A stretch of 64,000 nucleotides of DNA from Oscillospiraceae bacterium (GTDB taxonomy: Bacteria; Bacillota; Clostridia; Oscillospirales; Acutalibacteraceae), in assembly GCA_015066325.1 (NCBI GenBank), contig SVOP01000001.1, positions 1,668 to 65,667 of the forward strand. Direction: 5' to 3'. Position 1 is the first letter of the stretch; every line of letters begins with the position of its first letter. The notes beneath the pieces are model-generated. The model made no database searches, was not told where the DNA came from, and saw only the letters and a program-made list of their open reading frames with translations. A program made the translations under genes and the position numbers. Positions 1,114 to 31,838 of the stretch are shown here, in pieces.

Positions 1114-1764
1114 CTATTTATTCGCCTTTATTGTAAATGTTGCACCCCAGTTATTAAGCACCTCAACGGAAGAAAAACCCGCTTCAAGCAAAGCTTCGGT
1201 TTCATGTTCAACAGTTAATGGGGTGTCATAATGATAAAATTCGTTATCATCAATGCCTTGTTCCTTTTTAAGACGAATGAGTTCGTTTCGGAAGGCTTTC
1301 TCGTCTTCATCGGTCAATGCAAAATAATCGGTAAGGATGAAATATCCGCCATCTTTTAGTGATTTACAGAGTTTTGTATAAAGCGGTATTTTTTCTTCTT
1401 TCGTGAAGTGATGCAGGGATTCAACCGATACTGCTGCATCAAAAGTGTTTCCATCAAATGGAATATCAAAATATGAGCCACATATCAAGGTTAAATCCTT
1501 TTCGGGGAACTTATTTTTCAATGCATTCAACATTGATTGTGTTAAATCAATACCTGTTATTTTTGCAGATGGATTAAGCCGAAAATAGTGTTCCAATTCC
1601 AGACCCGTACCACAACCTAAGTCAAGTATTTTTGCACCATCTGTTTTTGGTAAACAGTATGCTGTAAACGGATAAAACACATCAGATGATTCTATAGTGG
1701 TCATCATATGTTCATCGTAACCATCCAACCTTTTATTAAAAAATTCATTCATTTTTTCAAGCAT
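1114..1764 (-). CDS. Class I SAM-dependent methyltransferase
   Basis: Motif I ILDLGCGTGLE, followed by typical post-I/II spacing (DAAVSVESLHH). Confidence 0.85.
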   Translation of the reverse strand: MLEKMNEFFNKRLDGYDEHMMTTIESSDVFYPFTAYCLPKTDGAKILDLGCGTGLELEHYFRLNPSAKITGIDLTQSMLNALKNKFPEKDLTLICGSYFDIPFDGNTFDAAVSVESLHHFTKEEKIPLYTKLCKSLKDGGYFILTDYFALTDEDEKAFRNELIRLKKEQGIDDNEFYHYDTPLTVEHETEALLEAGFSSVEVLNNWGATFTIKANK

Positions 1765-1769
1765 AATTA

Positions 1770-2258
1770 TTATCCTCTATATATTACATCTATTTCATCT
1801 TCATTCGGTACTTCAAATATTGATGCAAATTTCTTAGCAAGGTTATCATCAATATAATAAGCGTTCGTTTCTTCTAATAATATTTCACTATTTCTTTTCT
1901 GTAAGCGTGCTTGCCAGGTTTCAACGCTGATATCAATGTAATGGAATTCACACGCTATATTTCGGCTGTTATAGAACTCACGAGCATAATCCCTTTCTTC
2001 CTTCATCCAGAAGCCCCAATCAAGAATAACATTGATTCCGTCCTCTATGAGATCCAATGATTTGTTGAATAAATAGTTTTGAGTTCTTTCCACATAATCA
2101 TCGTGTTTTTCACCACAATGCTGACCGAACAAAGCAAGGGTTATCTCATCTGTAGAGAGCAATACAGCGTGATTCTGGACACGTAACTGCTCAGCATATG
2201 TACTTTTACCGCTGCAGATTTTACCGCATATTAAATATACTTTTGGCATAAGAAACAC
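1770..2258 (-). CDS. P-loop NTPase / small-molecule kinase-like (AAA_33-type)
   Basis: Walker A motif GKICSGKST near the N-terminus. The protein is 162 aa. Confidence 0.65.
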   Translation of the reverse strand: MFLMPKVYLICGKICSGKSTYAEQLRVQNHAVLLSTDEITLALFGQHCGEKHDDYVERTQNYLFNKSLDLIEDGINVILDWGFWMKEERDYAREFYNSRNIACEFHYIDISVETWQARLQKRNSEILLEETNAYYIDDNLAKKFASIFEVPNEDEIDVIYRG

Positions 2259-2264
2259 CTTCTT

Positions 2265-2738
2265 TTATAATTTACAATACATCTCCTGTGCTTTGGGGAT
2301 GAATCCAAGCTTTTCATAAAGTTTGATTGCTCCGTGATTGTTTACAAGTACATCAAGATTTATAAGATTGCAGTTTTGCTCTTTTGCCCAGTCCTTTGCT
2401 GAATTCATAAGAGCTGTACCGAATCCTTTGTTTCTGTGAGTTTTCGTTACAATTACATCCATTATATAACAATATTTACCGGGAAGCATAAAGTCAAAAT
2501 CGGGTCTTGTTTTTGCTTGAAGCAGAATAAAACCAACAACTGTACAATCATTTTCGTAAACAAGGATATCCGACACATCATCTGAAATCGTTTTTTCAAG
2601 AAACTCTATACTTTGGTCGCCCTCTTTTATGAAATCAGGTATCAGTTTTGACATTTCCCTGAATTGCTCACGATATAATTCAGCTATTGCAGGGGTATCA
2701 TCAACTGTTGCTTTTCTTATCATAAACATTCCTCCCAA
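2265..2738 (-). CDS. GNAT family N-acetyltransferase
   Basis: VTKTHRNKGFGTALMNSAKDWAKE matches GNAT motif A (R/Q-x-x-G-x-G/A). Confidence 0.85.
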   Translation of the reverse strand: MGGMFMIRKATVDDTPAIAELYREQFREMSKLIPDFIKEGDQSIEFLEKTISDDVSDILVYENDCTVVGFILLQAKTRPDFDFMLPGKYCYIMDVIVTKTHRNKGFGTALMNSAKDWAKEQNCNLINLDVLVNNHGAIKLYEKLGFIPKAQEMYCKL

Positions 2739-4402
2739 GCTTGTTTAAGCTCTTTTATGCTTTGATAACGTTTATTTCTATCATCGCTTACTGCCTTTGT
2801 TGCAACTGAAAACGCTTTATCTGACAGTTGCCAATTTTCACGGCTACGGTTGTAATTACCGAACAAAGCAAAGGCAAAAGCACCGGCACAATAAACATTT
2901 GTTGTTTCGTCAATATCTGCACCGAGTTTGTATTCTTCGGGAGACTGAAACTTTGAACTGCCCCACATTCTGCCCATATCGTTGACACACGGCTGTTTTC
3001 TGAAAAAGTCAATATCACAGATTGTTGTTTTATGATTTTCAGCATCGTACATAATACTTCCGTCATAAAAATCAACAGCAACATAATCGCTTGAATTGGT
3101 ATAGTCCAAAAAATCAAGAATATCACTAAAAACAATCAGCCTATCTGCAGCGGGCATATTCATAAATTTACGATGCTCTGCAGTGTACATTCTGCCCATA
3201 CAGTCACCGTCAACCCACTTGAATACCATTGCAAAACCGCCGCCCATTTCTTTTGATTCAACAAACTCAATGAGATTTTTGTGTTTCATGTTTTCATATA
3301 CGGGTAAGGTTGATTTCAAACGCTCAATCGCATCTTCAGGAGTGCCGTTATATGCCTCGGTCGGCGCACCTGCAAATTTCACAAAATATCTTTCACCGTC
3401 TTTTTCTGTACCGAAACAGATATTACCTGAATCCTGGTCGTCAAACACCTTGAACACCTTTCCGTATTGGCTGATAAAACTGAAATCGAAAGGTGCTTTC
3501 ATTTTGTAAGGCAGACCATCTATGTATTGCAAATAATAACCTTTGAAATACCAAGTTGGAACAGGATGCTGCATATTATCATACCAATCGAGAACATCCT
3601 TTGCCTGATTAAGCATTGTCTGTACTTCACCGTCACCGAAAGGAATAGCCCAAGGGATCGATGAAAGCATATTACTGCTGATATAAAGTGCAAGGAGTTT
3701 CCAGAAATCCATTGGTACTTCATCATCAAAATATCCGTTAACAATACCTGAAGCAAAAATCGGAGCAGACTGTGCACACCACACAATACGGTTAAATTCT
3801 TCCCACGGGTCACCGAAATCATATCTATCAAAATCAATAATAACAATTTTGCCGTTTTCAATCATCATATTGCCGATATGATAATCTCCGTGCTGATAGG
3901 ATTGAGGTCTGTTTTTAAGCAAATTTCGGTTGGCTTCTATGTAATCAATGATATAGTCGGCACCGTCAAACTTTATAGGACAGTCATTATACATCTGTAT
4001 TTTTCTGTCCATTTTCTTGTTAAAACGGATTTCCCAATCAGGTTGGTCTGTAGGTGCTGGTATTGAGTGAAATTTCTTTAGTATTCTGCCCGCTTCAAGT
4101 CCGAGAGCATACTGTTCAGAGTCTGCAAGATATGGAACAACTTCCTCTGCGTCTTTGCCGTCAATCCAAGTCTGTAAAGTGTAAACACCTTCGTCACACT
4201 TGCCGAAATCAACAGGTTTGCACATAGGAACACCGAGCTTTTCAACCTCTTTCTGCATAAGGTACATATTCTCTCGATTTGCACTCTTTTCAAAAGGAGT
4301 AACACGCAGAAGATATTTTGTGCCATCAGCAGTAGTAACACAGTATTTCTTGTCACCCGACCAACCTTTGTTTATTGGTTCTTTTGTTATAAAATCAAGC
4401 AT
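2720..4402 (-). CDS. Tandem kinase: N-terminal aminoglycoside-phosphotransferase (APH)-like domain fused to a second protein-kinase-like domain
   Basis: The N-terminal half carries the APH catalytic region HGDYHIGNMMIENGKIVIIDFDRYDFGDPWEEF. The C-terminal half has a second kinase-like core (YFVKFAG ... VAVDFYDGSIMYD ... ICDIDFF). Confidence 0.7.
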   Translation of the reverse strand: MLDFITKEPINKGWSGDKKYCVTTADGTKYLLRVTPFEKSANRENMYLMQKEVEKLGVPMCKPVDFGKCDEGVYTLQTWIDGKDAEEVVPYLADSEQYALGLEAGRILKKFHSIPAPTDQPDWEIRFNKKMDRKIQMYNDCPIKFDGADYIIDYIEANRNLLKNRPQSYQHGDYHIGNMMIENGKIVIIDFDRYDFGDPWEEFNRIVWCAQSAPIFASGIVNGYFDDEVPMDFWKLLALYISSNMLSSIPWAIPFGDGEVQTMLNQAKDVLDWYDNMQHPVPTWYFKGYYLQYIDGLPYKMKAPFDFSFISQYGKVFKVFDDQDSGNICFGTEKDGERYFVKFAGAPTEAYNGTPEDAIERLKSTLPVYENMKHKNLIEFVESKEMGGGFAMVFKWVDGDCMGRMYTAEHRKFMNMPAADRLIVFSDILDFLDYTNSSDYVAVDFYDGSIMYDAENHKTTICDIDFFRKQPCVNDMGRMWGSSKFQSPEEYKLGADIDETTNVYCAGAFAFALFGNYNRSRENWQLSDKAFSVATKAVSDDRNKRYQSIKELKQAWEECL

Positions 4403-9096: not shown

Positions 9097-9585
9097 TTAC
9101 CTCATATTGTTTATGTATTCTTCTGCTTCTTTTCTACTTTTAAAAATTATAATATCTTTTTCGCTGTATTTCTTCAAAAGTTCCAAAACCTTTGGTTTGC
9201 TTTGGGCGTTATAGTTTCTGATAAATTCCAGAAGTTCTTCATCAACTTCTGTTTCTATCCACGGCATATCAGAACGTGTTTTTCCTTGTCTTTGCATAAT
9301 GCCATCAATACAAACCTCAACAGGATAGTCAAGAAAGAAAACAGTATCGCATTCTTTCATACGAAGTTCTATTGAAGAGCCGTAGTTACCATCGATTATC
9401 CATTTATCAAGTTCAATAACATTCTGCAACCTTTCAAGAAAAATTGCTTTATCTACTGTTGTTTTATCACTGTTCCAATTCAACAAATCAAGGTGGTATA
9501 AAGGCAAGTCAGTAAGTTCGTGTAATGCTCTTGAAAATGTGCTTTTCCCCGAACCGGGACAACCTATTACAATTACTTTGTTCAT
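9097..9585 (-). CDS. P-loop NTPase, adenylate-kinase / topology-modulation (FlaR)-like
   Basis: Walker A motif VIGCPGSGKST. It is 162 aa and has a 4-nt overlap with the upstream HAD gene. Confidence 0.7.
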   Translation of the reverse strand: MNKVIVIGCPGSGKSTFSRALHELTDLPLYHLDLLNWNSDKTTVDKAIFLERLQNVIELDKWIIDGNYGSSIELRMKECDTVFFLDYPVEVCIDGIMQRQGKTRSDMPWIETEVDEELLEFIRNYNAQSKPKVLELLKKYSEKDIIIFKSRKEAEEYINNMR

Positions 9586-11118: not shown

Positions 11119-11235
11119 TCAATTAAGCTGATTCTCTGCTTTAAGTTGCTTGGTTACACCTTCTGCTTCTTTCATCTGAGCCGCAAGAGTTTCAAACATA
11201 TCTCGTGCTTGATTGTTTATCCTAGCACAGTGTCG
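11119..11235 (-). pseudogene. Possible TnpV-like (transposon-associated protein) internal fragment
   Basis: Minus strand translates ...QARDMFETLAAQMKEAEGVTKQLKAENQLN*. From memory, this resembles the (A/Q)EGVTEQLKAENQ segment of clostridial TnpV-family proteins. It is short, has no proper start, and ends prematurely. Confidence 0.3.
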
Positions 11236-11255
11236 ATTCCCCAATTTCAGTAATG

Positions 11256-11284
11256 TTGACATAACATAACTTTTGTGTTAAAAT
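11256..11284 (+). promoter_or_regulatory. Sigma-70-type promoter (extended -10) for the XRE/ASCH/HNH operon
   Basis: TTGACA (11256-11261), a 17-nt spacer, then TGtTAAAAT (-10 at 11279-11284). ATAACAT-type half-sites flank it (ATGTTGACATAACAT; ATGTTCTATGTAATATAACAT). Confidence 0.55.
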
Positions 11285-11322
11285 GTTCTATGTAATATAA
11301 CATATAACAAGGAGACAAAATA

Positions 11323-11706
11323 ATGCCCAAAAAGAACTTTGATAGCAAAAAGGAGCAAAAACAACAATTAGGAGCGATGTTGGCTCTTTGCAGAGGCAAA
11401 AGAAGTTTACGCGAAATTGCCCGTGCAATTGAAATTCCTGCATCAAATCTTAGTTATATTGAAAAAGGCATTAATGCTCCTAGCCCAGAAGTATACGAAA
11501 AAATCATCTTGGAATTGGAACCTTCCGATAAGAAGCGTCAAGAAATGGATGCTTTGTATAGCTGTATTAGAGATCTTCCACCACCTGATGTGTGCGAAAT
11601 ACTTGTTGCTAACAACGGACTCAATAATTCACTTCGTTTGCTCGGGAACAAACATGTTTCTAACGATATGCTTATACAAATCAACAAATTGTTTGCATCG
11701 TTATGA
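11323..11706 (+). CDS. XRE-family helix-turn-helix regulator (candidate regulator or antitoxin)
   Basis: HTH segment SLREIARAIEIPASNLSYIEKGINAPS. AAGGAGA SD. It lies 15 nt upstream of the 620-aa gene. Confidence 0.8.
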   Translation: MPKKNFDSKKEQKQQLGAMLALCRGKRSLREIARAIEIPASNLSYIEKGINAPSPEVYEKIILELEPSDKKRQEMDALYSCIRDLPPPDVCEILVANNGLNNSLRLLGNKHVSNDMLIQINKLFASL

Positions 11707-11721
11707 TAAGGGAGAAATAAT

Positions 11722-13584
11722 ATGAAGACATATTACTTGAAAATTAGAGATAAATTCATCGGCGAAATCAATGCCGGAAATAAAAAACATGAATACAGAT
11801 TAGCATCCCCAGAAAGAACGCAAGTAAAAGTGGGCGATACCTTGGTTTTGGTTTCTAATCAAAACAAAGCTGTGTTTGTAAAAACCACCGTAAAAGGTAT
11901 AAGAATTTTTCCTGGTTGGAGAGAAGCTTTGGAAGATAATTGGCAACAAGATTTTCAAAACTTATATACCACAATTGATGAAGCATTGCGGGAATGTTAT
12001 AAGTTTTATCCCAAAGATGAAGTCGATACCTACGGTATTATCGTTTATGAAATTGAACCGCTTAAAATGAACATCTTACAATCAAGTATCCTTATTGATA
12101 CTAATATCATAATCAAAAGAGAAAGCAGCAATAATGTAACCTTCGAAATTGCCAGTCTGTTTAATTGGTTTGCTAAAAAAGGTTCCGCAATTTTCGTTCA
12201 TGAGCGTTCCAAAGAGGAACTCTCTAATCACCGTGATGAAGCGGTCAAAAACAATATGCTTACAAAACTGAAGTCGTATAACATCTTACCTGCGTTCACA
12301 CATCAACCGGACAATTATTTTGAAGCTGTTATTTCTCAGTATGTAAAAGATCAAAACGGAATTATTGACAATGCTTTATTGCGTGAGGTGTATGACGGTA
12401 ATGTCGGCATACTTCTAACGGATGACAACCTTATTTTGAGGAAGGCACAGGAGTTATACATACGGGATAGAGTCCTTACATCAGCGGAACTTTTGTCATG
12501 GTTTGAAACCTGTGACCCAAAAAACATTGAATATAAAATGTTGGCAGTTACATTAAGCGAATTTGGCGATATAGATTTAAACTCTTCATTTTTTGATACA
12601 TTGAGAGAGGATTACGAAGGGATTGCTTTTGATAATTGGTTCAAGAAAAAAGCCCGTAATAAAGAAAAGGCATATATATTCAAAAACGAATCCGGGCTGT
12701 TACAAGGCTTTTTATACCTCAAAGACGAGTACGAGGATGAACCCGACTATTTGAAAGTAACACCGCCACTCGCGCCCAAGCGTAGAATGAAGGTAGGAAC
12801 ATTTAAAATTGAGCAAACCGGCTTCCGTCTCGGCGAACGCTTCTTAAAAATTATTTTCGACAATGCAAGAAGCCGCAAGGTCGATGAAATTTATGTTACT
12901 CTGTTTGAAAATAAGCGCGAAGGTGTCAAACGGTTGAAGTTGTTAATGGAAGAATGGGGATTCCGCAAGCATGGCTATAAACCGAATGGAGAACTTGTTC
13001 TTGTAAAAACAATGGAAACATACGATTCTAACGAAAGTCCTAAATTTAACTATCCGCTTCTAAAATCCACATCTAATTGCTATTTCCTTCCGATATATGC
13101 CCGATATCATACCGACCTATTTCCCGATATGATATTAAAAAATGAGGATATGCATTTGTATGAAGACAAAAAGGCTCATCGATATGCTTTAGAGAAAATC
13201 TATCTTTCAGGTTCTTTCAATGTGCCTGCTAATCCTGGAGATCTGTTTGTAATATATCGAATAGCAGAAAGAGGCCCGAAAAAGTATACTTCGGTTATAA
13301 CCGGCATCGCTATCATCGAAAGTATAATCAAAACAAAAACAGCTGATGAGTGTGTAGCTATATGTAAAAACCGCTCTGTATTTACCGAAGAAGAAATCAG
13401 GGAAATGCATAAGACTCGTCCAATTGTTATTAAATTACTCGATTATATGCCTTTTACTACAAAAGTAACTTTGGATGAATTGCAAAAGCAAGGGATAGTA
13501 CCTAAAAATTCTGGTGCCCGTCCGTTTGATTTAATTACGAAAGAACAATTCGATATTATATACAAATTAGGAATGGAGAAATGA
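11722..13584 (+). CDS. Multidomain protein: ASCH (PUA-like), then PIN nuclease, then GNAT-like, then an unassigned C-terminal domain
   Basis: Residues 1-115 look ASCH-like (LKIRDKFIGEINAGNKKHEYRL...VGDTLVLV). Residues about 120-260 look PIN-like (ILIDTNIII ... LLTDDNLILRKA). Residues about 285-440 look GNAT-like (FFDTLREDYEGIAFDNWFKKKA ... GFRLGERFLKIIFDNA ... LMEEWGF). Residues about 450-620 are beta-rich and unassigned (PGDLFVIYRI...SVITGIAIIESI). Confidence 0.6.
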   Translation: MKTYYLKIRDKFIGEINAGNKKHEYRLASPERTQVKVGDTLVLVSNQNKAVFVKTTVKGIRIFPGWREALEDNWQQDFQNLYTTIDEALRECYKFYPKDEVDTYGIIVYEIEPLKMNILQSSILIDTNIIIKRESSNNVTFEIASLFNWFAKKGSAIFVHERSKEELSNHRDEAVKNNMLTKLKSYNILPAFTHQPDNYFEAVISQYVKDQNGIIDNALLREVYDGNVGILLTDDNLILRKAQELYIRDRVLTSAELLSWFETCDPKNIEYKMLAVTLSEFGDIDLNSSFFDTLREDYEGIAFDNWFKKKARNKEKAYIFKNESGLLQGFLYLKDEYEDEPDYLKVTPPLAPKRRMKVGTFKIEQTGFRLGERFLKIIFDNARSRKVDEIYVTLFENKREGVKRLKLLMEEWGFRKHGYKPNGELVLVKTMETYDSNESPKFNYPLLKSTSNCYFLPIYARYHTDLFPDMILKNEDMHLYEDKKAHRYALEKIYLSGSFNVPANPGDLFVIYRIAERGPKKYTSVITGIAIIESIIKTKTADECVAICKNRSVFTEEEIREMHKTRPIVIKLLDYMPFTTKVTLDELQKQGIVPKNSGARPFDLITKEQFDIIYKLGMEK

Positions 13585-13961
13585 TTGACATGAAAAGAAA
13601 AATACTTATATCTATAAATCCCGAACATGTTCAAAACATCATTGCAGGGATAAAGAAATACGAGTATCGCAAAATCGCTGCTAAACAAGATATATCGTCT
13701 ATAATAATTTATGAAACGACGCCCATAAAACGAATAGTAGCAGAAGCTGAAATTATTGATGTATTAGAACTGCCCCCCGAGGAACTTTGGGAACAGACGA
13801 AAAACGAATCGGGCATTAGCAAAGCATTCTTTGATAGATATTTCGCCAACAGAACGGTAGCGTTTGCTTATAAATTAGGGGAAATCAAAGTATATGATAC
13901 GCCAAGAACATTACTGGATTACGGCATTAAAGCAGCGCCGCAATCATTTGTATATGTCTGA
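13581..13961 (+). CDS. Stand-alone ASCH domain protein
   Basis: ILISINPEHVQNIIAGIKKYEYRK is the classic ASCH N-terminal strand-helix-strand. ATGA overlaps the upstream gene. An alternative ATG at 13590 has better SD spacing. Confidence 0.75.
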   Translation: MIDMKRKILISINPEHVQNIIAGIKKYEYRKIAAKQDISSIIIYETTPIKRIVAEAEIIDVLELPPEELWEQTKNESGISKAFFDRYFANRTVAFAYKLGEIKVYDTPRTLLDYGIKAAPQSFVYV

Positions 13962-13963
13962 TT

Positions 13964-14779
13964 ATGAGATGTATTTTCTGTGGGAATGATTCCTCGTCGT
14001 CAAAAAGCGTAGAACATATTGTACCGGCATCGTTCGGCAATTCTGTTTCAATTTTACCCAAAGGTATCGTATGCGACAAATGCAATAATTATTTTGCACG
14101 TAAAATTGAATCTCCATTTCTTAATTCGGAAGTGGTTCTTCAATTAAGACAAGAGCTCGAGATAAATAATAGAGATGGAAAAGTGGTAAATAGATTTGCC
14201 GACTTGCCTACTAAAAACATAATGCAAATTTCTCAAGATTTACATCTTGTTATGTCGCAAGAAGACAAAACCGAGGAAGAAGTAGAGCAAGCTGTATTTA
14301 AATATCAAAAATACCTCAAAAGAACAGATGAATTACTCATAAAACCTGATTATAATTTATCTCGACTTTTAGCCAAAATGGCTGTGGAGGCTTTTGTATA
14401 TAAATGTCTTGATGATATGAATGTAATTGATTACATTATTGAAGATGAGGCATTTAAAAAGATTCGACAATATGTTCGTTACGGCGGAAATTACATTTGG
14501 GAGTACAACGCTCGGAGAATTTATGCACGCAACGAAGCGTATCACGGTGATGTTACAACCCACATCAATTATGAATTTGATTTTCTATTTACTTCTCAAG
14601 GAAAAGCATATTTTATAATTGTTATGTATGGTATTGAATATGTTATAAATATAATTGATAATACAATATCGGATTACACCGAATGGCTAAAAAATAATCA
14701 CTATATAAGTCCTTTGTATATATCACCTGAACAACGAAAAAAAGAATTTGAAGGATACATGAATTTTTTCGCAAAGTAA
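13964..14779 (+). CDS. HNH endonuclease-domain protein with an unknown C-terminal domain
   Basis: N-terminus CIFCGNDSSSSKSVEHIVPASFGN...GIVCDKCNNYF (CxxC ... EH ... N ... CxxC HNH/zinc-finger layout). It starts 2 nt after the ASCH stop with no SD of its own, which suggests translational coupling. Confidence 0.7.
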   Translation: MRCIFCGNDSSSSKSVEHIVPASFGNSVSILPKGIVCDKCNNYFARKIESPFLNSEVVLQLRQELEINNRDGKVVNRFADLPTKNIMQISQDLHLVMSQEDKTEEEVEQAVFKYQKYLKRTDELLIKPDYNLSRLLAKMAVEAFVYKCLDDMNVIDYIIEDEAFKKIRQYVRYGGNYIWEYNARRIYARNEAYHGDVTTHINYEFDFLFTSQGKAYFIIVMYGIEYVINIIDNTISDYTEWLKNNHYISPLYISPEQRKKEFEGYMNFFAK

Positions 14780-15088
14780 AAATACTACATAGCATCTATT
14801 CGTTATGCAAAATGGGAAACTGATTGAAAAAAATCACGTTATAACAGATGATTCGAATAGATAAAACATGTAGGTTTATAGACCATAGCAAATATTTTTA
14901 CACCAAATAAGATCCTTGAACTTTACCCAATTTATGCGTGGTTATGCAATGATCTCACTGCTTGAAAATGAGAGAAAAAATTGAGAATTTAAAAGTAATA
15001 ATATATTGTTTACATTTAGTCCTGTAAACCGAAAAGAAAAAATTATGAGCCTTCAGTGGTAAATAAATGAAAGCGTTGGAGAATAAAA

Positions 15089-16039
15089 ATGAATAATAAA
15101 ACTAAAAAGAAATACAAAATTGCAAATCAAGCAATTGATAGTGTTAATAGTATAAATAACAGTAGACAACCCAAGCCAGGTTTTCCAACAGTTTTTTTGT
15201 TAGCTTTTACTATTGTTTTTATCATTGTTGTGGTGACAGCACACTGTATTGAATCAATAAGCGAAAAATCTGTTGGTTTTTTATCAAATTTTATAACGAT
15301 TGTAATAACTATAATTATATTTTTTTATACGATCAATAACGAAAAACGTGAAGATTATAAATTAGCCAAAAAGAATGCCGCTATATTGGCACAATCATTA
15401 AATTCTATTATGGCTCAAATCACAATGATTAATAACGGAGAGCGATTTAATATTATTTATCCCTCAGAATTATTAGATTACTATCGCCAGTGTTCAGTAT
15501 ATTTAAAATATGAATACCTTGAGCCTATAATGAGTGAATTGAGTTTTGTAAATCGCATAAATTCTTGTATTGAAAAAAATGACGAAAGCCAAATACAAAT
15601 ATTAATAGATCACAGGAGAAAATGCTTATCTAGATGGAACGATGATTTTAACATTATTGAGGTTTCTTGTAATTTACATGCATTTTCACTAGAACAAGAA
15701 GAACAAAAACCATGGAAAGAACAAAAACAATACAAAGAATTCGACGAGTTTATTTTAAGTAATTATGAAAAGGATATTAAGAAAATTACTTTGAATCGGT
15801 TGAAAGAAATGGACGACGAATGCGATGAATCTATTATGGCAGATTATATTGCCGAACAGTTGTCTAAAGAAATTAAAAAGAAAAATCCAGAATTAACAAA
15901 ACTATTGTATGAAAACCGCGCGTTAACCAAAGCAATATTTAAAGTTTATCTTACTTTAGAGGATAAAGATGGATTTAAACTTTGTTGGGGAATACTATCA
16001 TTAAATAAAAAACAAGTATTGGATTCGAAGTCATCATAG
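15089..16039 (+). CDS. Hypothetical membrane protein (2 N-terminal TM helices plus a roughly 220-aa soluble domain)
   Basis: GGAGA SD. TM segments FPTVFLLAFTIVFIIVVVTAH and FLSNFITIVITIIIFFYTI. Very AT-rich codon usage. I recognise no family. Confidence 0.5.
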   Translation: MNNKTKKKYKIANQAIDSVNSINNSRQPKPGFPTVFLLAFTIVFIIVVVTAHCIESISEKSVGFLSNFITIVITIIIFFYTINNEKREDYKLAKKNAAILAQSLNSIMAQITMINNGERFNIIYPSELLDYYRQCSVYLKYEYLEPIMSELSFVNRINSCIEKNDESQIQILIDHRRKCLSRWNDDFNIIEVSCNLHAFSLEQEEQKPWKEQKQYKEFDEFILSNYEKDIKKITLNRLKEMDDECDESIMADYIAEQLSKEIKKKNPELTKLLYENRALTKAIFKVYLTLEDKDGFKLCWGILSLNKKQVLDSKSS

Positions 16040-16409: not shown

Positions 16410-17888
16410 GTGATACTTTTGACAGGCGTAATTTATGCGAGATATTCAAGTGATAATCAGCGTGAAGAGTCCATTGAAGGTCAATTGAGAGAGTGCAAGG
16501 TATTTGCCGAGAAAAATGGCATTGATGTTGTTGGTACATACATTGACCGAGCATTATCTGCCAAGACGGACAACCGTCCTGATTTCCAGAAGATGATTAA
16601 AGACAGTGTTAAAAAGCAATTCGATTGTGTTATTGTCTGGAAGCTTGACCGATTTGCTCGTAACCGTTACGATTCTGCTCATTATAAAGCTATTCTTCGC
16701 AAAAATGGTGTTCGTGTTTTATCTGCAACCGAAGCAATTTCACAAGGTGCAGAAGGTATCATTCTTGAATCGGTTCTGGAAGGTATGGCTGAATACTATT
16801 CAGCAGAACTTGCAGAAAAGGTTATCCGAGGTCAGACCGAAAATGCTTTGAGCTGCCGTTTTAATGGTGGTACAATTCCTATCGGTTACAAAATAAATAA
16901 AGATCGGAAATTTGAAATTGATAACGAAACAGCACCCTATGTTTTATCAGCTTTCAAAATGTACGAAGATGGTATGACGATGCAGGAAATTGCAGATGAA
17001 CTAAATGTCAAAGGTATTCGTAATACTCGTGGTACAAAATTAAATATCAACACTGTTTCTAACTTGTTGTCAAACAGAAGATATATGGGCGAGTATTATT
17101 ATCGTGATATTGTGATTTCCGATGGCATACCCGCTATTGTTCCAAAAGATTTGTTCCTGCGTGTTCAAGAAAGGATAGCTAAAAACAAAAATTCACCTGC
17201 ACGATACAGAGCAGATGAACAATATATTTTATCTACCAAGTTATACTGTGGTAAGTGTATGACTTTTATGGTTGGTGAAAGCGGTACTGCAAGGAACAAA
17301 AATACATATCGTTATTACAAGTGCTTATCTGCAAAACGCAAGCGTGGTTGCGATAAGAAAGCAGTTAAAAAAGACTGGATTGAAAATCTCGTTATAAACC
17401 AAATCATTCGTGTTATATGGGATGATAATCTGATTGAAGATATAACCGATATGGTTATGGACTTGCAGAAAAATGAAAACAATGTTCTTCCTCTTCTCAA
17501 AAAGAGACAAAATGAAATTAACAAAGGTATTTCAAATATCCTTTCCGCAATCGAACAGGGCATATTCACACCATCAACAAAGGAACGCCTTGAAGATTTA
17601 GAGAAACAAAAACGAGAAATCGAAATACAAATTGCAGAAGAAAGCATTGCAAGACCGATGCTTGACCGTGACCAGATTAAATTTTGGTTTCACCGTTTCA
17701 GAAAAATGGATGCATCGAAGCCTGAAAACCGAAGAAGATTGGTTGACAGCTTTGTGAATTCAGTGATTTTATATGATGACAGAATTGAGTTTTATTTCAA
17801 CTTCAAAAAAGGTGCAAAAAGCCTTTCTTTAGAAGATTTGGAAAAAGGTTCGGATACGCTTGATTCACTCCCACCAAAAAAGAACTAA
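16410..17888 (+). CDS. Large serine recombinase (resolvase catalytic domain, recombinase domain and zinc ribbon)
   Basis: GVIYARYSSDNQREESIEGQ contains the catalytic Ser motif. Also VWKLDRFARN, and a Cys cluster YCGKC...YYKC...GC. The likely true start is TTG at 16419, 5 nt after GAGGTGA. Confidence 0.9.
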   Translation: MILLTGVIYARYSSDNQREESIEGQLRECKVFAEKNGIDVVGTYIDRALSAKTDNRPDFQKMIKDSVKKQFDCVIVWKLDRFARNRYDSAHYKAILRKNGVRVLSATEAISQGAEGIILESVLEGMAEYYSAELAEKVIRGQTENALSCRFNGGTIPIGYKINKDRKFEIDNETAPYVLSAFKMYEDGMTMQEIADELNVKGIRNTRGTKLNINTVSNLLSNRRYMGEYYYRDIVISDGIPAIVPKDLFLRVQERIAKNKNSPARYRADEQYILSTKLYCGKCMTFMVGESGTARNKNTYRYYKCLSAKRKRGCDKKAVKKDWIENLVINQIIRVIWDDNLIEDITDMVMDLQKNENNVLPLLKKRQNEINKGISNILSAIEQGIFTPSTKERLEDLEKQKREIEIQIAEESIARPMLDRDQIKFWFHRFRKMDASKPENRRRLVDSFVNSVILYDDRIEFYFNFKKGAKSLSLEDLEKGSDTLDSLPPKKN

Positions 17889-18177: not shown

Positions 18178-18522
18178 ATGCCTAAGAACTATTTGCTTAT
18201 TTATTCAGAACAACTTGCAACTGATATCGCATTGTTGTGTCAAAGCATTAAAGCACCAAGCAACACTATTTTCCAAATTCAAAAAAGTTCAAGCAGTGTT
18301 TACGCAAATATTCGTGAAGCAAATTATGGTCAAAGTAAGGCAGATATGCTTTCTAAATTCGAAATAGCACTAAAAGAATGTAGCGAAACGGAAGGTTGGC
18401 TACAATTATTATTTAATACCAACGCTATTGATGAAGATACATATAAAAAACATAGAAATCTTTGTGGCAGAATCAGACGAATGCTGATTTCAAGTTGTAA
18501 AACGTTAAAAGAAAAGATTTAA
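18178..18522 (+). CDS. Four-helix-bundle protein (23S rRNA intervening-sequence protein family)
   Basis: REANYGQSKADMLSKFEIALKECSETEGWLQLL matches the family signature (EA..s..DF..K..IA.KE..ET..WL.L). Confidence 0.75.
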   Translation: MPKNYLLIYSEQLATDIALLCQSIKAPSNTIFQIQKSSSSVYANIREANYGQSKADMLSKFEIALKECSETEGWLQLLFNTNAIDEDTYKKHRNLCGRIRRMLISSCKTLKEKI

Positions 18523-19808: not shown

Positions 19809-20216
19809 ATGAAAATGAAAAACAGCATAGGTGAAAGAATTGCCTACCATAGAAAAATGAATGCAATGACACAGGAGGAGCTTGCCGGGAAGTTGAATGT
19901 TTCTACTCAAGCCGTTTCGAAATGGGAACAAAAAATTTCTTCGCCTGATATTACGCTTTTGCCGGAAATTGCAAGTGTTTTTTCTATTAGTATCGATGAA
20001 TTGTTCGGAAAGAAAGTTGATAGGGAACCCGTGTTTAATTTAGTTGATAATGTTCCGTGGGACGATGACAGAAAAATACGAATTGCAGTTTATCATGGCA
20101 AAAAACTTATGCAACAATCAACACATCAACTTCAAAAAGGAACAAATAAAATAAATGTTCATTTTGACTATGGTGAAGTTTATAAAATACATGGTGTTTG
20201 TAATTTGAATTTATAA
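19809..20216 (+). CDS. XRE-family HTH transcriptional regulator
   Basis: IGERIAYHRKMNAMTQEELAGKLNVSTQAVSKWEQKISSPDITLLPEIASVFSISIDELFG is the canonical Cro/C1 HTH. Confidence 0.8.
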   Translation: MKMKNSIGERIAYHRKMNAMTQEELAGKLNVSTQAVSKWEQKISSPDITLLPEIASVFSISIDELFGKKVDREPVFNLVDNVPWDDDRKIRIAVYHGKKLMQQSTHQLQKGTNKINVHFDYGEVYKIHGVCNLNL

Positions 20217-20552: not shown

Positions 20553-21932
20553 ATGAGCATACAAAATTTAATTGCACAGTATAAAGAGAATAAAAATGGC
20601 ATAAGCCATTGTACCTTTAATCCTGAAGGGCCGGGAGTTGTCAGAATTCACCTTGTTCCGCCTAAATTTAAATTGTTTGGTGATAGGGCATACATAGTTA
20701 TTTTAAACGGTTACTATATGTTACCGTTGGGTTATTCCTGGGCTTTGTTGCTTTCTAATTTTATGAAAGAGGTAAATGCCTTTGCAGGTAAGCCCATAAA
20801 CGAAAACGATGAAGAGACTATTTTTAAAAGCACAATTAATAAAACATCAGCAGTTTATCCTTCTATGAGCAAAGAGGATATCGAAGAGGATCTGGAATTT
20901 ATTTTGCGGGTTCTTTTTGCAGTTGCAAGAGGGGACGACCCTGAAATCGAAATTGAAAAGCTTTCCATTCGACAATACGGAAAGAATATGACTGCACCTC
21001 ACAGAATGGATTTGTTAGTCAGTGCAATGACTGATGCAGAAGGTAAATGGCAGTGTAATCAGAAATGCAAATTTTGCTATGCAGCAGGTCAATGCAAGGG
21101 TCAGACTAACGAATTGGGAACGGATGAATGGAAAAAGATTATTGAGGTGCTTTATAAAGCCAATGTTCCTATGGTTACCTTTACAGGAGGGGAGCCAACA
21201 ATGAGAGCTGATATTGCTTCTCTTGTTGCCCATGCAGAAAAAATGGTAACCCGACTTAACACCAATGGAATTAATTTAACTCCCGATTTGGTTAATGAGC
21301 TTAAAAAAGCAGGTCTTGACAGTGTTCAGGTCACTCTTTATTCTCACGATGAAGCGATTCATAATGAGCTTGTTGGCGGTGAACATTTTAAAGATACGGT
21401 AAACGGCATAAAAAATGCGGTAAAAGCAGGACTTGATGTGAGCGTTAATACCCCTCTTTGCAAAAAGAATTCGGATTATATAAAAACACTTGAATTTATA
21501 AAATCTCTTGGTGTAAGCTTTGTTACAATCAGCGGTCTTATCTGCACGGGTATGGCGGAAATCAATCACGAAGAATATGATCTTTCGGAAGAAGCCTTGT
21601 TTGATATTGTTAAGGAAGCAAAAATGTTCTGCACAGTAAATGAAACAGAAATTGATTTTACCTCACCCGGTCTGATTGCAAAAGAACGGTTAGAGTCAAT
21701 CGGTATGAATGTTCCGATGTGCGGTGCGGCTCTGAGCAATATGGCAGTTGCACCTGACGGTACAGTGGTTCCCTGTCAGAGCTGGCTAAATTCTGACGCG
21801 AATTTAGGGAATATACTCAAAGATAAGTTTTCTGATATATGGAAAAACAAAAAATGTGTTGAATTAAGAAATATGACCGAGGAAGAAGCCTTGAATTGCC
21901 CATTCAGAAAAAGTGAGGTGATGGGGAAATGA
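20553..21932 (+). CDS. Radical SAM / SPASM-domain protein with a roughly 165-aa N-terminal extension
   Basis: CNQKCKFCYA is the CX3CX2C cluster. Also GGEPTMR, and a C-terminal Cys-rich SPASM-like region (PMCGAALSNMAVAPDGTVVPCQSW...C...CPF). Confidence 0.85.
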   Translation: MSIQNLIAQYKENKNGISHCTFNPEGPGVVRIHLVPPKFKLFGDRAYIVILNGYYMLPLGYSWALLLSNFMKEVNAFAGKPINENDEETIFKSTINKTSAVYPSMSKEDIEEDLEFILRVLFAVARGDDPEIEIEKLSIRQYGKNMTAPHRMDLLVSAMTDAEGKWQCNQKCKFCYAAGQCKGQTNELGTDEWKKIIEVLYKANVPMVTFTGGEPTMRADIASLVAHAEKMVTRLNTNGINLTPDLVNELKKAGLDSVQVTLYSHDEAIHNELVGGEHFKDTVNGIKNAVKAGLDVSVNTPLCKKNSDYIKTLEFIKSLGVSFVTISGLICTGMAEINHEEYDLSEEALFDIVKEAKMFCTVNETEIDFTSPGLIAKERLESIGMNVPMCGAALSNMAVAPDGTVVPCQSWLNSDANLGNILKDKFSDIWKNKKCVELRNMTEEEALNCPFRKSEVMGK

Positions 21933-22981
21933 GAGCTAAAAAGGATAAAAACGATTATTCTGCAAAAACTATAGAAAATCGCAGAAAATTTCCCGTGAGA
22001 AACACAGTGATAATTGCAGTTTGCGTAGTTGTTCAGATAGTTTTAATTTTTTTGGCAGTAACTGCAAAAGCAGAGCCTCAGGATGTTATTGAAAAATACA
22101 CTGTTACCGTTGAGCCGTTGGAAGACGGCACGCTTGACATTGAATATTCTTTCTTGTGGAAAGCTATTGACGAAGCAGAGGAGCTTACCTGGGTTGATAT
22201 CGGTATGGCAAACGCCTCTTTCTCCATATACGAGGAGTCAATTTCCGGAAATATAAAGGAATGTTCTGCAATATATGATGATGGTTATACGGGGGTAAGG
22301 CTGGATTTTCAAAGAGGCTATAAAGGCGGAGAAAACCTAAAGTTTTCCTTTAAGGTGAATCAGCAATATATGCTTTGTAAGGATATGGACAGTTACTTTT
22401 ATGAGTTTGTTCCTTGCTGGTTTAACAGTACCCCTGTGGAAAATTATGAGTTCAGATGGAAAAAGTCCGCCACTTCTTTCGGAGCAGACGGAGCAAATCT
22501 TAAAAACGGTTATTATACCTGGAACGGTAGCTTTGATTGCGGAGAATATGAAATAATGCAGGTTTCTTATGACCTTACTGCTTTTTCAGGGGTTGAAACT
22601 GTTGAATATGAGCCCTTTATGACTAACGGTGCATATAATCAGCTTGCAGAAGACCGAGCTATAAAAATAGGTGTTTTTTGCGTTGTAATTATAGGTATTC
22701 TGATTGGAGAAATTTATCTTTTAGACAGTCACGTTTCATATCGTAGAGGAAGGGGCTTCCTTGTTGGTTACGGACACCCCATACATACCTACGGCTATCA
22801 GAATCCCAGATACATAAAGGCATATAACAGAGCTCACACCTCTACTTCATCAGGTCAGGGTGGCGGTTTCCGTGGCGGTGGATGCGCCTGCGCCTGTGCT
22901 TGTGCTTGTGCCGGTGGCGGTAGAGCAGGATGCGGTCAGAAGGACACATACACAAATATCGAACGAATAAAAAAATATTAA
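21929..22981 (+). CDS. DUF2207-like two-TM membrane protein with a C-terminal Gly-rich / (Cys-Ala)5 tail
   Basis: ATGA overlaps the radical SAM gene. IEKYTVTVEPLEDGTLDIEYSF resembles the DUF2207 N-terminal domain. The tail reads SSGQGGGFRGGGCACACACACAGGGRAGCGQ. Confidence 0.55.
   Translation: MRAKKDKNDYSAKTIENRRKFPVRNTVIIAVCVVVQIVLIFLAVTAKAEPQDVIEKYTVTVEPLEDGTLDIEYSFLWKAIDEAEELTWVDIGMANASFSIYEESISGNIKECSAIYDDGYTGVRLDFQRGYKGGENLKFSFKVNQQYMLCKDMDSYFYEFVPCWFNSTPVENYEFRWKKSATSFGADGANLKNGYYTWNGSFDCGEYEIMQVSYDLTAFSGVETVEYEPFMTNGAYNQLAEDRAIKIGVFCVVIIGILIGEIYLLDSHVSYRRGRGFLVGYGHPIHTYGYQNPRYIKAYNRAHTSTSSGQGGGFRGGGCACACACACAGGGRAGCGQKDTYTNIERIKKY
22883..22912 (+). repeat. Imperfect hexanucleotide repeat (TGYGCY)x5 encoding (Cys-Ala)5
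   Basis: The sequence reads TGCGCC TGCGCC TGTGCT TGTGCT TGTGCC. Confidence 0.9.
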
Positions 22982-29669: not shown

Positions 29670-31064
29670 TTGCAGTTGGAGCATAAATTGGTCAGCTTTG
29701 CAGCAAATGCAGCGTTATCAAGAATATTAAGATATATTGACAAAGCCCCAGAAGAAAATCTTTTGAAGATTTTGAAGGTTGCAGAAAAATATTTTACAAT
29801 GTATCCCAAGGAAAACTACGAAAAAATGCGTAGGGCGGTTGGTGATAAAGATAATGTTTATATGCAGCTTGCCAAGAATATTCTTAATGATGTTGACCGT
29901 GATTTAGTAAAATCCTTACTCATTTCTTTGGGTATTCACGCAGGTTATTTCGGAACAAAAACCGTTCGTGCAAAGCGTGATAAATATAATTGCAATATTC
30001 CTTTCATTATTCTTTTTGACCCAACAAGTGCTTGTAACCTTAAGTGTAAGGGCTGTTGGGCAGCGGAATATGGTCACAGCTTTCAGCTTTCGCTTGATGA
30101 TATGAGAAGCATTGTGAACCAGGGTAAGGATTTGGGAACTCATTTTTATATGCTCACAGGGGGCGAACCACTTATCAGAAAAGATGATATAATTACCCTC
30201 GCTTCTGAAAATCCTGAGTGCACATTCCTTATTTACACCAATGCAACGCTCGTTGATAAAAAGCTTTGTGACGATATTAAGCGGTGCGGAAATATCACAC
30301 TTGCTCTTTCCATTGAGGGTGATGAGTGCAGTAACGATGACCGAAGAGGTCAGGGTGCTTATGAGAAGACCGTTGAGGCTATGGAGCTTCTTAAAAAGGA
30401 GAAAATTCTTTTCGGTATTTCCGTTTGTTACACAAGCAAAAATGTTAATGATGTAACAAGTGATGAATTTCTTGATAAAATGGTTGATTTGGGAGTTAAA
30501 TACGCTTTCTATTTCAACTTTATGCCTGTTGGTCATGGGGCGGACAAGGATTTAATTCCTACTCCCACACAGCGAAAATATATGTATTTCTGGATGAAGA
30601 AAATGCGTAACGGACATACAGGGAAGCCCTTGTTTGTTATGGATTTCCAGGACGATGGCGAATATGTTGGCGGTTGTATTGCAGGTGGCAGAAACTACTT
30701 CCACATTAACTCAAAGGGTGATATGGAGCCTTGTGTTTTCATTCATTACTCAGATTCCAATATTAAAACAGATACCCTCCTTGAAGCACTTCAAAAACCG
30801 CTTTTTATGGCATACAGAAAAGGACAGCCCTTTAATGACAACCATCTTATGCCCTGTCCCATGCTTGAAAATCCCGATATTTTAAGAAAGATTATAAATG
30901 ATACGGGTGCCCGAAGCACAGATTTTGTTTCTCAGGAAACAGTTGAAGAGCTTTGCTCAAAATGTGATGATTTCAGCAAAGCCTGGAGGCCTGTTGCAAC
31001 TGAAATCTGGGAGAATAACCCCCATCCCAAAACTCACACACAATATTACAGAGACCACAAATAA
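29670..31064 (+). CDS. Radical SAM protein with a C-terminal auxiliary-cluster-like region
   Basis: CNLKCKGCWA is the CX3CX2C cluster. Also GGEPLIR, and later GGCIAGG...GDMEPCVF...MPCP. The likely start is TTG at 29676, 8 nt after AAGGAGG. Confidence 0.8.
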   Translation: MQLEHKLVSFAANAALSRILRYIDKAPEENLLKILKVAEKYFTMYPKENYEKMRRAVGDKDNVYMQLAKNILNDVDRDLVKSLLISLGIHAGYFGTKTVRAKRDKYNCNIPFIILFDPTSACNLKCKGCWAAEYGHSFQLSLDDMRSIVNQGKDLGTHFYMLTGGEPLIRKDDIITLASENPECTFLIYTNATLVDKKLCDDIKRCGNITLALSIEGDECSNDDRRGQGAYEKTVEAMELLKKEKILFGISVCYTSKNVNDVTSDEFLDKMVDLGVKYAFYFNFMPVGHGADKDLIPTPTQRKYMYFWMKKMRNGHTGKPLFVMDFQDDGEYVGGCIAGGRNYFHINSKGDMEPCVFIHYSDSNIKTDTLLEALQKPLFMAYRKGQPFNDNHLMPCPMLENPDILRKIINDTGARSTDFVSQETVEELCSKCDDFSKAWRPVATEIWENNPHPKTHTQYYRDHK

Positions 31065-31118: not shown

Positions 31119-31838
31119 TTAAAATAAGCCACCATTATATTTATATTGATGCTTAAACAGCAGTGCCACGCATATTATATACCCTATAATTAAAAAGGAA
31201 GTACCCAACACCTCAAGAAAATGAATTGCAGGAAATAAAGATGTTAAACTGCAAATAAAGGTCGGTATGCTCATAAGCATAATTCCCTTGCCCATAGCCC
31301 TGCAGTAGCCTTCTCTGTCAACAACATTTCTGTAATGGTAGGAATGCAAAAGTGAAATATGACCTTTTCTGACGGTAAAGCCGGAAGCGAGCAGAAGAAT
31401 TGCTACTGTCAATAAGCCGATAAATTCAGTCGTGTTTTCAAATGATATGTTTGATAATATTGCATCTGCAAGATAAATGAATGTGGGAATTGCAGTAGGT
31501 ATAAGAAGAACGGAAAAAATAATTATACATATTGCCATTTGCAGCTTTTTCTTTTTTACAGAAATTTCTTTTTCCTTAATAGCTTGTATAACATTTTTTT
31601 CTGCAATTTCATTGATTTTTTCTTCTTCAAGCCTTTTTCCTGCTAAAAGCTCATTAACGCTTACCAGGAAAAAATTACTTAATGCCAAAAGAGAGTTAAC
31701 ATCAGGAAAGCCTTTTCCTGTTTCCCAACGTGACACGGCTTTATCTGAAACATTTATTTTTTTTGCTAATTCCTTTTGAGTAAGATTTTTTTCTTTTCTT
31801 AATTCGCAAATAAATTTACCGCAGTCTTTTGATGACAT
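31119..31838 (-). CDS. Membrane-anchored XRE-family HTH regulator
   Basis: LRKEKNLTQKELAKKINVSDKAVSRWETGKGFPDVNSLLALSNFF is the HTH, followed by about 4 TM helices. Confidence 0.75.
   Translation of the reverse strand: MSSKDCGKFICELRKEKNLTQKELAKKINVSDKAVSRWETGKGFPDVNSLLALSNFFLVSVNELLAGKRLEEEKINEIAEKNVIQAIKEKEISVKKKKLQMAICIIIFSVLLIPTAIPTFIYLADAILSNISFENTTEFIGLLTVAILLLASGFTVRKGHISLLHSYHYRNVVDREGYCRAMGKGIMLMSIPTFICSLTSLFPAIHFLEVLGTSFLIIGYIICVALLFKHQYKYNGGLF

Follow-up and report, generated by a model that had tools for sequence, protein, structure and literature searches.

The four-gene operon at positions 11256-14779 of a 64,000-nucleotide stretch of DNA from an Oscillospiraceae bacterium (contig SVOP01000001.1; the whole 64-kb stretch is hereafter named the window) almost certainly belongs, as judged from sequence and structure comparisons, to the (PIN)-GNAT-EVE + ASCH family of operons, catalogued in PADLOC as PDC-M11. 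It encodes an XRE-type helix-turn-helix protein, a large protein of 620 amino acids (aa) with the domain order ASCH-PIN-GNAT-EVE, a small ASCH protein of 126 aa and an HNH_5 nuclease of 271 aa. As a working model, which in our judgement is an even call, the operon would be a horizontally mobile four-gene variant of this family and a candidate anti-phage module resembling a toxin-antitoxin (TA) system.

According to this model, the effector would be the 620-aa protein, whose N-terminal ASCH and C-terminal EVE domains would dock on a nucleic acid, probably one with modified bases and probably RNA (tRNA or rRNA). The GNAT domain would acetylate either the docked substrate or aminoacyl-tRNA, and the PIN domain would cut RNA, an activity that together with that of the GNAT domain would lead to translation arrest in the infected cell. 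The co-translated 126-aa protein, predicted to bind single-stranded nucleic acids like its relative ZmASCH (see below), would restrain the effector by occupying or protecting the same substrate, by reversing the mark or by binding the effector itself. The HNH_5 protein would be an add-on DNA nuclease working with the small ASCH protein, and the XRE protein would repress the strong promoter of the operon. The family context for a defence function consists of the detection of PDC-M11 by guilt by embedding, together with the restriction-modification, TIR and Abi neighbours found in relatives.

Operon layout and domain composition

Open reading frame (ORF) calling identified four genes on the plus strand in one run, encoding proteins of 127, 620, 126 and 271 aa. 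These are the XRE gene (11323-11706), the large gene (11722-13584), the small ASCH gene (13581-13961) and the HNH gene (13964-14779). The 15-nt gap between the XRE gene and the 620-aa gene contains a GGGAG Shine-Dalgarno sequence, the 620-aa and 126-aa genes share an ATGA stop/start overlap, and the 126-aa and 271-aa genes are separated by a 2-nt gap without a Shine-Dalgarno sequence. A sigma-70-type promoter was located on the same strand at 11256-11284, with TTGACA at 11256-11261, a 17-nt spacer and a TG-extended TAAAAT at 11279-11284. Its 3' end lies 39 nt before the XRE start codon. With a score of 11/12 it is joint best in the region from 10.8 to 16.5 kb, and it is the sole site combining 11/12 with the TG extension. 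Promoter-like sites are not enriched in this region (28 versus 27.1 expected from shuffles), and hence it is the location of this promoter, and the fact that it is conserved as part of the transferable cassette described below, that speak for it. The four-gene layout, the spacings and the promoter were all as claimed in the original prediction, and its reading of the genes as a single operon was retained. Two copies of ATAACATA (11261-11268 and 11297-11304, plus strand) flank the -10 region. It is speculative that this pair might be the operator of the XRE protein, since a short two-copy repeat may occur by chance.

Residues 123-617 of the 620-aa protein match PADLOC model PDC-M11A (PDLC04422) with an E-value of 1.2e-152 (profile positions 3-492 of 501). 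For the 126-aa protein, the match is to PDC-M11B (PDLC04425), with an E-value of 1.4e-39. The gene order of PDC-M11, in which the large gene is followed by the ASCH gene on the same strand, is that of the window, and the GNAT domain (detected by Foldseek) is fused N-terminal to an EVE domain (detected through homologue P0093). In the supplement to the preprint of Payne et al. (2024), PDC-M11 is the two-gene cassette CAS_00069; it belongs to a set of 145 untested candidates that were picked out for lying inside known defence systems ("guilt by embedding"). The same operon type appears as the "purple cluster" of Bell, Wolf and Koonin (2020, BMC Biol 18:159, PMC7641849), defined by a GNAT-EVE fusion that often carries an N-terminal PIN domain. 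That article reports PIN forms close to type I restriction-modification systems, prophage-borne GNAT-EVE forms, HTH(XRE)-ASCH fusions in alpha-proteobacteria and an HsdS-ASCH fusion, and credits Iyer et al. (2013, NAR 41:7635) with the first description. The operon had been proposed to match no named system. Given the PDC-M11A and PDC-M11B matches, the operon type of Iyer et al. 2013 and Bell et al. 2020, and the GevT and GevA labels that a phage record gives to a short form (see below), it can no longer be regarded as an undescribed system. The two functional readings put forward at that time, modified-nucleic-acid sensing and an RNA-targeting toxin, are those debated for this family in the literature.

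The 620-aa protein was then considered domain by domain, using for Foldseek an AlphaFold2 (AF2) model with a mean pLDDT of 80.6. The N-terminal ASCH domain (residues 1-118; 11722-12075, plus strand, as are all the parts that follow) has a predicted PH0355/YqfB-like fold and a GxKxxExR motif with K21, E24 and R26. It matches Pfam ASCH at residues 6-114 (E 1.2e-7), PH0355 in the PDB (2z0t) both by sequence (E 5e-11) and by Foldseek (4e-10), and E. coli YqfB (9kyf) by Foldseek (E 8e-5, TM 0.80 normalised to the target). A PIN-like RNase domain follows at residues 119-268 (12076-12525); its acidic residues D126, E134, E166, D216 and D235 are kept in at least 90% of 78 homologues, and PIN_3 is matched by 11 of 57 diverse relatives, with a best E-value of 9e-7. 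The GNAT acetyltransferase domain (residues 269-440; 12526-13041) is the best-conserved part of the large protein, and R369, G371, E372 and R373 lie in a conserved loop of it. Its assignment draws on conservation, PDC-M11A, GNAT structures found by Foldseek (2oh1 at 1.4e-5, NatD and others), a PHROG "acetyltransferase" family spanning residues 279-415 (E 5e-20) and the matches of relatives to Pfam Acetyltransf_1. The C-terminal part (residues 441-620 plus the stop codon; 13042-13584) is a predicted PUA-like domain of the EVE type. PF01878 was detected at residues 501-615 of the full-length, 63% identical homologue P0093 (E 2.3e-6, 28.1 bits versus a gathering score of 23), and EVE was matched by 8/57 relatives. 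Both the GNAT and the EVE cores are conserved among the 78 homologues. When the profile of the whole large-protein family was compared with PDB sequences, the sole match was a marginal one to NAA50. The ASCH, PIN, GNAT and HNH calls made from the sequence at the outset were thus upheld by Pfam, PDB, Foldseek, PHROG and the relatives, and the C-terminal domain, for which another PUA-like barrel had been guessed, could be named as EVE from P0093 and the 8/57 relatives.

The 126-aa protein matches Pfam ASCH (E 3e-5), and its nearest solved relative is ZmASCH of Zymomonas mobilis (PDB 5GUQ, E 7e-6), a homologue with which it has cleft residues in common: Y47, K53, Q127 and S128 of ZmASCH align with Y44, K50, Q121 and S122. 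Unlike the 126-aa protein, ZmASCH was deposited as part of a "helix-turn-helix domain-containing protein". Across 80 small-ASCH homologues, Y44, Q121, S122 and the GxKxxExR residues K25, E28 and R30 are at least 95% conserved. The cleft of ZmASCH is lined by Tyr47, Lys53 and Ser128, and in vitro the protein binds single-stranded DNA (ssDNA) and single-stranded RNA (ssRNA) and shows weak Mg-dependent cleavage of ssRNA (Kim et al. 2017, PMC5615036). The small ASCH type also matches an NCBIfam model named "ribosomal protein L22/unknown domain fusion" (E 1e-11). The properties of ZmASCH, the match to the L22-fusion model and the RNase fold of the PIN domain together make RNA (tRNA or rRNA) a more probable substrate than DNA.

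Core and accessory components among relatives

An exhaustive profile search for relatives of the large protein returned 1,609 representative proteins at E-values up to 1e-3, which fall into three length classes: ASCH-PIN-GNAT-EVE (~620 aa), PIN-GNAT-EVE (~500 aa) and GNAT-EVE (~350 aa). A scan of GTDB species genomes with the profile of a 19-sequence alignment confirmed at least 524 relative-encoding stretches. The best 80 of these, a sample biased to top matches, were analysed by ORF calling and phmmer; they comprise 44 loci of the 620 type (L012-L054 and L076), 34 loci of the 500 type and two fragments. Nearly all of the 620 type come from gut or rumen Bacillota, and loci of the 500 type occur in Treponema, Endomicrobium, Verrucomicrobia and Nitrospirae as well. 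The small ASCH gene is located directly downstream of the large gene in 44/44 loci of the 620 type and 34/34 of the 500 type (80/80 with the fragments), which shows that it is the obligatory partner of the large protein. An HNH homologue is adjacent downstream in 11 of the 38 assessable 620-type loci (~29%) and in 3/34 of the 500 type, with one further 500-type locus in which it lies upstream. An XRE homologue was found directly upstream in 15/41 loci of the 620 type (~37%) and in 0/33 of the 500 type, and XRE and HNH are both present in 7/36 of the 620 type. This indicates that HNH and XRE are accessory components. Regarding the proposal that the three genes after the XRE gene form a conserved unit, the linkage of the large and small ASCH genes holds without exception, whereas that of the HNH gene fails in most of the loci counted above. 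The four-gene arrangement recurs in metagenome-assembled genomes (MAGs) of Eubacterium and Christensenella with 52-65% protein identity. The locus of a 69%-identical homologue consists of the large and small genes alone and is situated on a mobile element, beside a HaeIII-type restriction-modification system. What looks like a fusion of the large and small ASCH proteins in L171 was discounted, since its profile matches overlap; it is possibly a deletion or an assembly artefact.

One difference between the two main types concerns a ~180-aa AAA_17 protein, whose identity was confirmed by Pfam. It was found in 0/44 loci of the 620 type and in 21/34 of the 500 type; in 19 of these it lies directly upstream, and in the other 2 it closely follows the small ASCH gene. 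The N-terminal ASCH domain and AAA_17 are therefore mutually exclusive within the 80-locus sample. It may be that the fused ASCH domain stands in for AAA_17, or that each of the two is a marker of its own clade.

The XRE protein matches HTH_31 and HTH_3 at residues 15-62 (E 6e-6). It is dispensable in most relatives, and the 88%-identical copy of the cassette in L015 starts at 11719, without the promoter and the XRE gene. Since it is dispensable, the XRE protein is probably an accessory component that regulates transcription of the operon, and not the neutralising partner. Mean identity to the window proteins over the 44 loci of the 620 type is 74% for the small ASCH protein, 66% for GNAT, 62% for the N-terminal ASCH, 57% for EVE and 56% for PIN, and HNH and XRE are the fastest-diverging components in the middle of the range. 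This ranking is in keeping with a partner whose task is to recognise a conserved cellular ligand or to carry out chemistry, accompanied by fast-evolving sensor or effector domains.

The HNH_5 protein begins with a zinc-finger nuclease head (residues 1-55; 13964-14128, plus strand) that matches Pfam HNH_5 at residues 3-54 (E 1.9e-11) and in which C3, C6, E17, H18, C37, C40, N41 and N42 are invariant among 33 homologues. The body of the protein (residues 56-271; 14129-14779, plus strand) was modelled by AF2 as helices plus a beta-sheet (pLDDT 91.7 and pTM 0.90), and K138, E142, R172, W179, R184, D206 and E225 are conserved in it. Foldseek found no significant match for this body in the PDB (best E 0.21) or BFVD (best 0.18), and a profile search of PDB sequences with the 271-aa protein gave no match. 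In L065 (7531-8628, plus strand), a single ORF directly after PIN-GNAT-EVE encodes a 365-aa ASCH-HNH_5 fusion, with a small-ASCH part (phmmer 1e-28) and an HNH_5 part (Pfam 2.8e-8). This fusion is a Rosetta-stone link between the small ASCH and HNH proteins, which are separate in the window. Homologues of the HNH protein with 36-37% identity lie in operons of AAA_17, GNAT-EVE, ASCH and HNH_5, in which the GNAT-EVE protein (366 aa) is 31% and the ASCH protein 54% identical to that of the window, and in a cyanobacterium ASCH-like, HNH_5 and AAA_17 genes are adjacent. The HNH gene is thus found next to each of the three architectures (ASCH-PIN-GNAT-EVE, PIN-GNAT-EVE and AAA_17 + GNAT-EVE). The L065 fusion, the AAA_17 operons and the cyanobacterial trio link HNH_5 to the system, and within it to the small ASCH protein in particular. 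In a survey of 88 HNH relatives from metagenomes and IMG/VR, 69 loci could be assessed for an adjacent small ASCH gene, which was present in 14, and 45 for adjacent GNAT-EVE, which was present in 11. A separate observation was made in L112, where a 731-aa relative of the large protein (1360-3555, plus strand) matches the family profile in its PIN and EVE parts only. It has an extra N-terminal segment of ~200 aa and a middle region that does not align to the GNAT part of the profile, and ASCH and HNH_5 genes are found downstream. It may be a variant with a different central enzyme.

In a modification-dependent, restriction-like DNA system, which we consider fairly unlikely, the PUA-like readers would see modified phage DNA or a mark written by GNAT, HNH_5 would be the main effector and PIN and GNAT would be auxiliary. 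A PUA-like reader combined with HNH is the canonical type IV architecture, and the same fusion occurs in L065. Restriction-modification systems also neighbour relatives (HaeIII-type in L001-3, an HsdM fragment in L008 and, according to PMC7641849, type I systems and HsdS-ASCH). Iyer et al. are cited in PMC7641849 as proposing DNA-base acetylation, and ZmASCH binds ssDNA besides RNA (PMC5615036). However, HNH is missing from ~70-90% of the loci, whereas the large and small ASCH genes are always together, and for this reason HNH cannot be the core effector. In addition, PIN is an RNase fold, ZmASCH cleaves ssRNA and not DNA (PMC5615036), the NCBIfam model shows this type of ASCH joined to ribosomal protein L22, and the cassette contains no methyltransferase or other DNA-modification gene. 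A related scheme, very unlikely in our estimation, is an acetylation-based "write, read, cut" immunity in which GNAT-EVE would mark a base in RNA or DNA, the ZmASCH-type protein would read or erase the mark and HNH_5 and PIN would cut according to the acetylation state. If true, this would be the logic of restriction-modification with acetylation instead of methylation.

Mobility of the cassette and its bearing on function

Comparison of the window with relatives by blastn delimited a cassette of ~3.5 kb (11252-14785, plus strand), from the promoter through the HNH stop codon. The relatives were MAGs assigned to Ruminococcus, Oscillospiraceae, Faecousia, Fimenecus and Eubacterium CAG:841, with a nucleotide identity of 81-91% that starts at 11252-11255 and ends at 14757-14785, between unrelated flanks. 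In terms of operon features, these limits lie four bases upstream of the -35 hexamer and close to the HNH stop codon. The comparison shows that the cassette behaves as one transferable unit, and the mobile, accessory context that had been proposed holds as well. Defence-type neighbours of relatives include the HaeIII-type restriction-modification system (L001-3), the HsdM fragment (L008), TIR, Fic, AbiJ and FRG, and their mobile-element neighbours include integrases and large serine recombinases. No DNA match was found in the plasmid collection. Abutting the cassette in the window is a truncated TnpV-like ORF (11119-11250, minus strand; 43 codons plus stop, ending in ...ARINNQARDMFETLAAQMKEAEGVTKQLKAENQLN*), with 47% identity over 36 aa to the Pfam TnpV protein of L001. 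Its interruption exactly at the cassette start suggests that the cassette inserted into, or recombined with, a Tn4451-like mobilisable element.

Such mobility might also be expected of a plain addiction module, that is, a TA pair that stabilises its mobile element by post-segregational killing and has no role in phage defence. The mobile DNA setting (the TnpV-like remnant and large serine recombinase in the window, integrases in relatives), the spread of a discrete 3.5-kb unit between genera, the toxin and antitoxin labels given in GenBank to the short form and an autoregulating helix-turn-helix gene, typical of type II TA modules, are all consistent with this explanation. We nevertheless hold it to be distinctly unlikely: the short form occupies the rexAB-like slot in the immunity region of lambdoid prophages, the family was detected as embedded within defence systems, relatives have restriction-modification, TIR and Abi neighbours, and for a labile antitoxin the small ASCH protein would show an unusual degree of conservation.

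The fold of the N-terminal ASCH domain raises another explanation. E. coli YqfB (9kyf), which it resembles, is an ASCH protein with N4-acetylcytidine (ac4C) amidohydrolase activity, and ac4C can be written by GNAT enzymes of the TmcA type. The large and small proteins could on these grounds be a housekeeping writer/eraser pair for RNA modification (e.g. acetylated cytidine in tRNA or rRNA) that is present in the island by chance. We regard this as extremely improbable, given that the system has a scattered distribution and moves horizontally (near-identical cassettes are found between unrelated flanks in different genera), and that it occurs in a prophage, mobile-element or defence context. 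Furthermore, a fused PIN domain and a linked HNH nuclease are unexpected in a housekeeping modifier, and both ASCH domains of the window have Glu in the GxKxxExR motif, at the position where YqfB presumably has its nucleophilic Thr.

The working model of a TA-like anti-phage module has to be weighed against several observations that count against it. In the window protein itself the PIN match is weak (PIN_12 E 4e-3, or 4e-4 for the isolated segment), and Pfam places both GNAT and EVE of the 620-aa protein below threshold. The slowest-evolving part of the system is the small ASCH protein, which would be atypical for a simple labile proteic antitoxin. Among the HNH relatives surveyed, those not adjoining the system have no conserved neighbour, and 55 of the 69 assessable are solitary genes; HNH may therefore act independently, and from its distribution it looks like a largely autonomous nuclease that was recruited repeatedly and in either gene order. 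No restriction-modification or other recognised defence system is adjacent to the cassette in the window. Literature searches (GevT/GevA, PhiR47, GNAT-EVE, and EVE with GNAT and toxin) retrieved no experimental paper on any family member, and the toxin and antitoxin labels derive from one GenBank annotation. Bell et al. (PMC7641849) read these operons as TA or defence systems with uncharacterised modules, and Iyer et al. 2013 are cited there as favouring acetylation of a DNA base.

The remaining features of the window lie outside the cassette. The island was originally described as AT-rich and next to a large serine recombinase. The recombinase is indeed downstream, but the cassette has a GC content of 0.34-0.39, similar to that of the upstream genes, and the AT-rich stretch is the one from 14.6 to 16.4 kb (0.27-0.29). 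Within it, an ORF at 15089-16039 (plus strand) encodes a 316-aa predicted membrane protein without a family match in Pfam, PADLOC, NCBIfam or PHROGs, which could be a separate accessory or Abi-like gene. The large serine recombinase (16410-17888, plus strand; Resolvase, Recombinase and Zn_ribbon_recom) is followed by a gene of the "23S rRNA-intervening sequence protein" family (18178-18522, plus strand; PF05635, E 5e-19), and both genes are probably the integration module of the surrounding element. The membrane protein and the recombinase were considered as cassette members and excluded because other genomes cease to match the window at 14785. A 162-aa P-loop kinase-like protein (9097-9585, minus strand) with weak matches to AAA_18 and AAA_33 was considered as a displaced AAA_17 partner. 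It was rejected because the similarity is at P-loop level only (27% over 77 aa, E 1e-3) and because it is located on the opposite strand, outside the cassette and 1.7 kb upstream. Further downstream, two radical SAM/SPASM enzymes (20553-22981 and 29670-31064, plus strand) are encoded near helix-turn-helix regulators (19809-20216 and 31119-31838), the first of them followed by an overlapping 350-aa ORF without a family match. These loci may serve peptide maturation, as in the production of ribosomally synthesized and post-translationally modified peptides. Rfam gave no family in the cassette region; its sole match in the 64-kb window is a tRNA gene at 32815-32898 (plus strand).

Relation to known systems

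The (PIN)-GNAT-EVE + ASCH family is widespread and was predicted more than a decade ago, and our searches found no published mechanism for it. A specialist would recognise the family, whose biochemistry is unsolved and potentially unusual. If it is true that GNAT marks a nucleic acid and ASCH reads or reverses the mark, this would be a new biochemical logic for immunity or TA control. The comparative patterns provide concrete hypotheses on how the system divides into core parts, sensors and add-on effectors. The cassette of the window is compact and self-contained, with its own promoter and regulator, and is thus suited to heterologous testing and a good experimental entry point. Three features appear to be new: the N-terminal ASCH fusion and its exclusivity with AAA_17; the recurrent, optional HNH_5 partner and the ASCH-HNH fusion; and the discrete 3.5-kb cassette, together with an HNH body whose fold is unmatched in the PDB and BFVD. 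The HNH partner is not mentioned in the text of Bell et al. 2020 (PMC7641849) as far as it was available, and Iyer et al. 2013 may already note some of these features.

The operons described for this family share with the window a PIN-GNAT-EVE gene followed by a small ASCH gene and a defence or mobile context. The window differs from them in that it lacks AAA_17, has XRE as a separate upstream gene and contains an HNH_5 nuclease as fourth gene. The association with XRE has a precedent in the HTH-ASCH fusions of alpha-proteobacteria given in PMC7641849.

Another close system is the GevT/GevA pair. A tblastn search of annotated phages detected the short GNAT-EVE form in lambdoid phages. In Escherichia phage PhiR47_2 (PV340567.1, L007; 4001-5429) the pair is annotated as "GevT toxin" and "GevA antitoxin" and lies between cI and kil, the place of rexAB in lambda. 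The same pair is present as "hypothetical" or "unknown" in seven further E. coli lambdoid phage records (eight rows) and in Salmonella SopEPhi, and literature searches retrieved no publication behind the annotation in PV340567.1. The 620-aa protein is 36% identical to GevT over residues 269-617 (E 4e-46), and the 126-aa protein is 39% identical to GevA over its full length (E 2e-31). Gene order and the overlap of the genes are as in the window. In contrast, GevT is a 357-aa GNAT-EVE protein without PIN or N-terminal ASCH, and its locus, in the lambdoid immunity region, has neither HNH nor an XRE gene.

The GNAT TA systems (TacAT, AtaRT, KacAT and ItaRT) resemble the operon in having a presumed toxic GNAT and a small operon with a DNA-binding regulator, and acetylation of aminoacyl-tRNA would be a plausible chemistry for the GNAT domain of the window too. 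Toxins of the TacAT/AtaRT/KacAT class are single-domain GNATs of ~160-180 aa, neutralised by an upstream ribbon-helix-helix (RHH)/DUF1778 antitoxin. The operon was not assigned to this class: its GNAT is formed by residues 269-440 of a four-domain protein, between PIN and EVE, and the upstream gene, which had been likened to the antitoxin of TacT and AtaT, encodes an XRE protein that is absent from 26/41 and 33/33 of the related loci and from the copy in L015. The invariable partner is the downstream ASCH protein (80/80), as opposed to the upstream antitoxin of the GNAT TA systems, and the analogy is consequently disfavoured. VapBC was likewise rejected, as PIN is internal to the large protein and no VapB, AbrB or RHH family was matched in the operon, and so was Septu, to which the similarity is limited to PtuB at an E-value of 0.0047, with no stretch passing alone and no ATPase in the cassette. 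Finally, the operon shares PUA-like readers and an HNH nuclease with the type IV modification-dependent enzymes (EVE-HNH, SRA-HNH and ASCH/YTH-nuclease fusions). In the window, however, reader and nuclease are encoded by separate genes, HNH is optional in the family, and the core of the system contains the GNAT domain and the RNase-fold PIN domain that the type IV enzymes lack.

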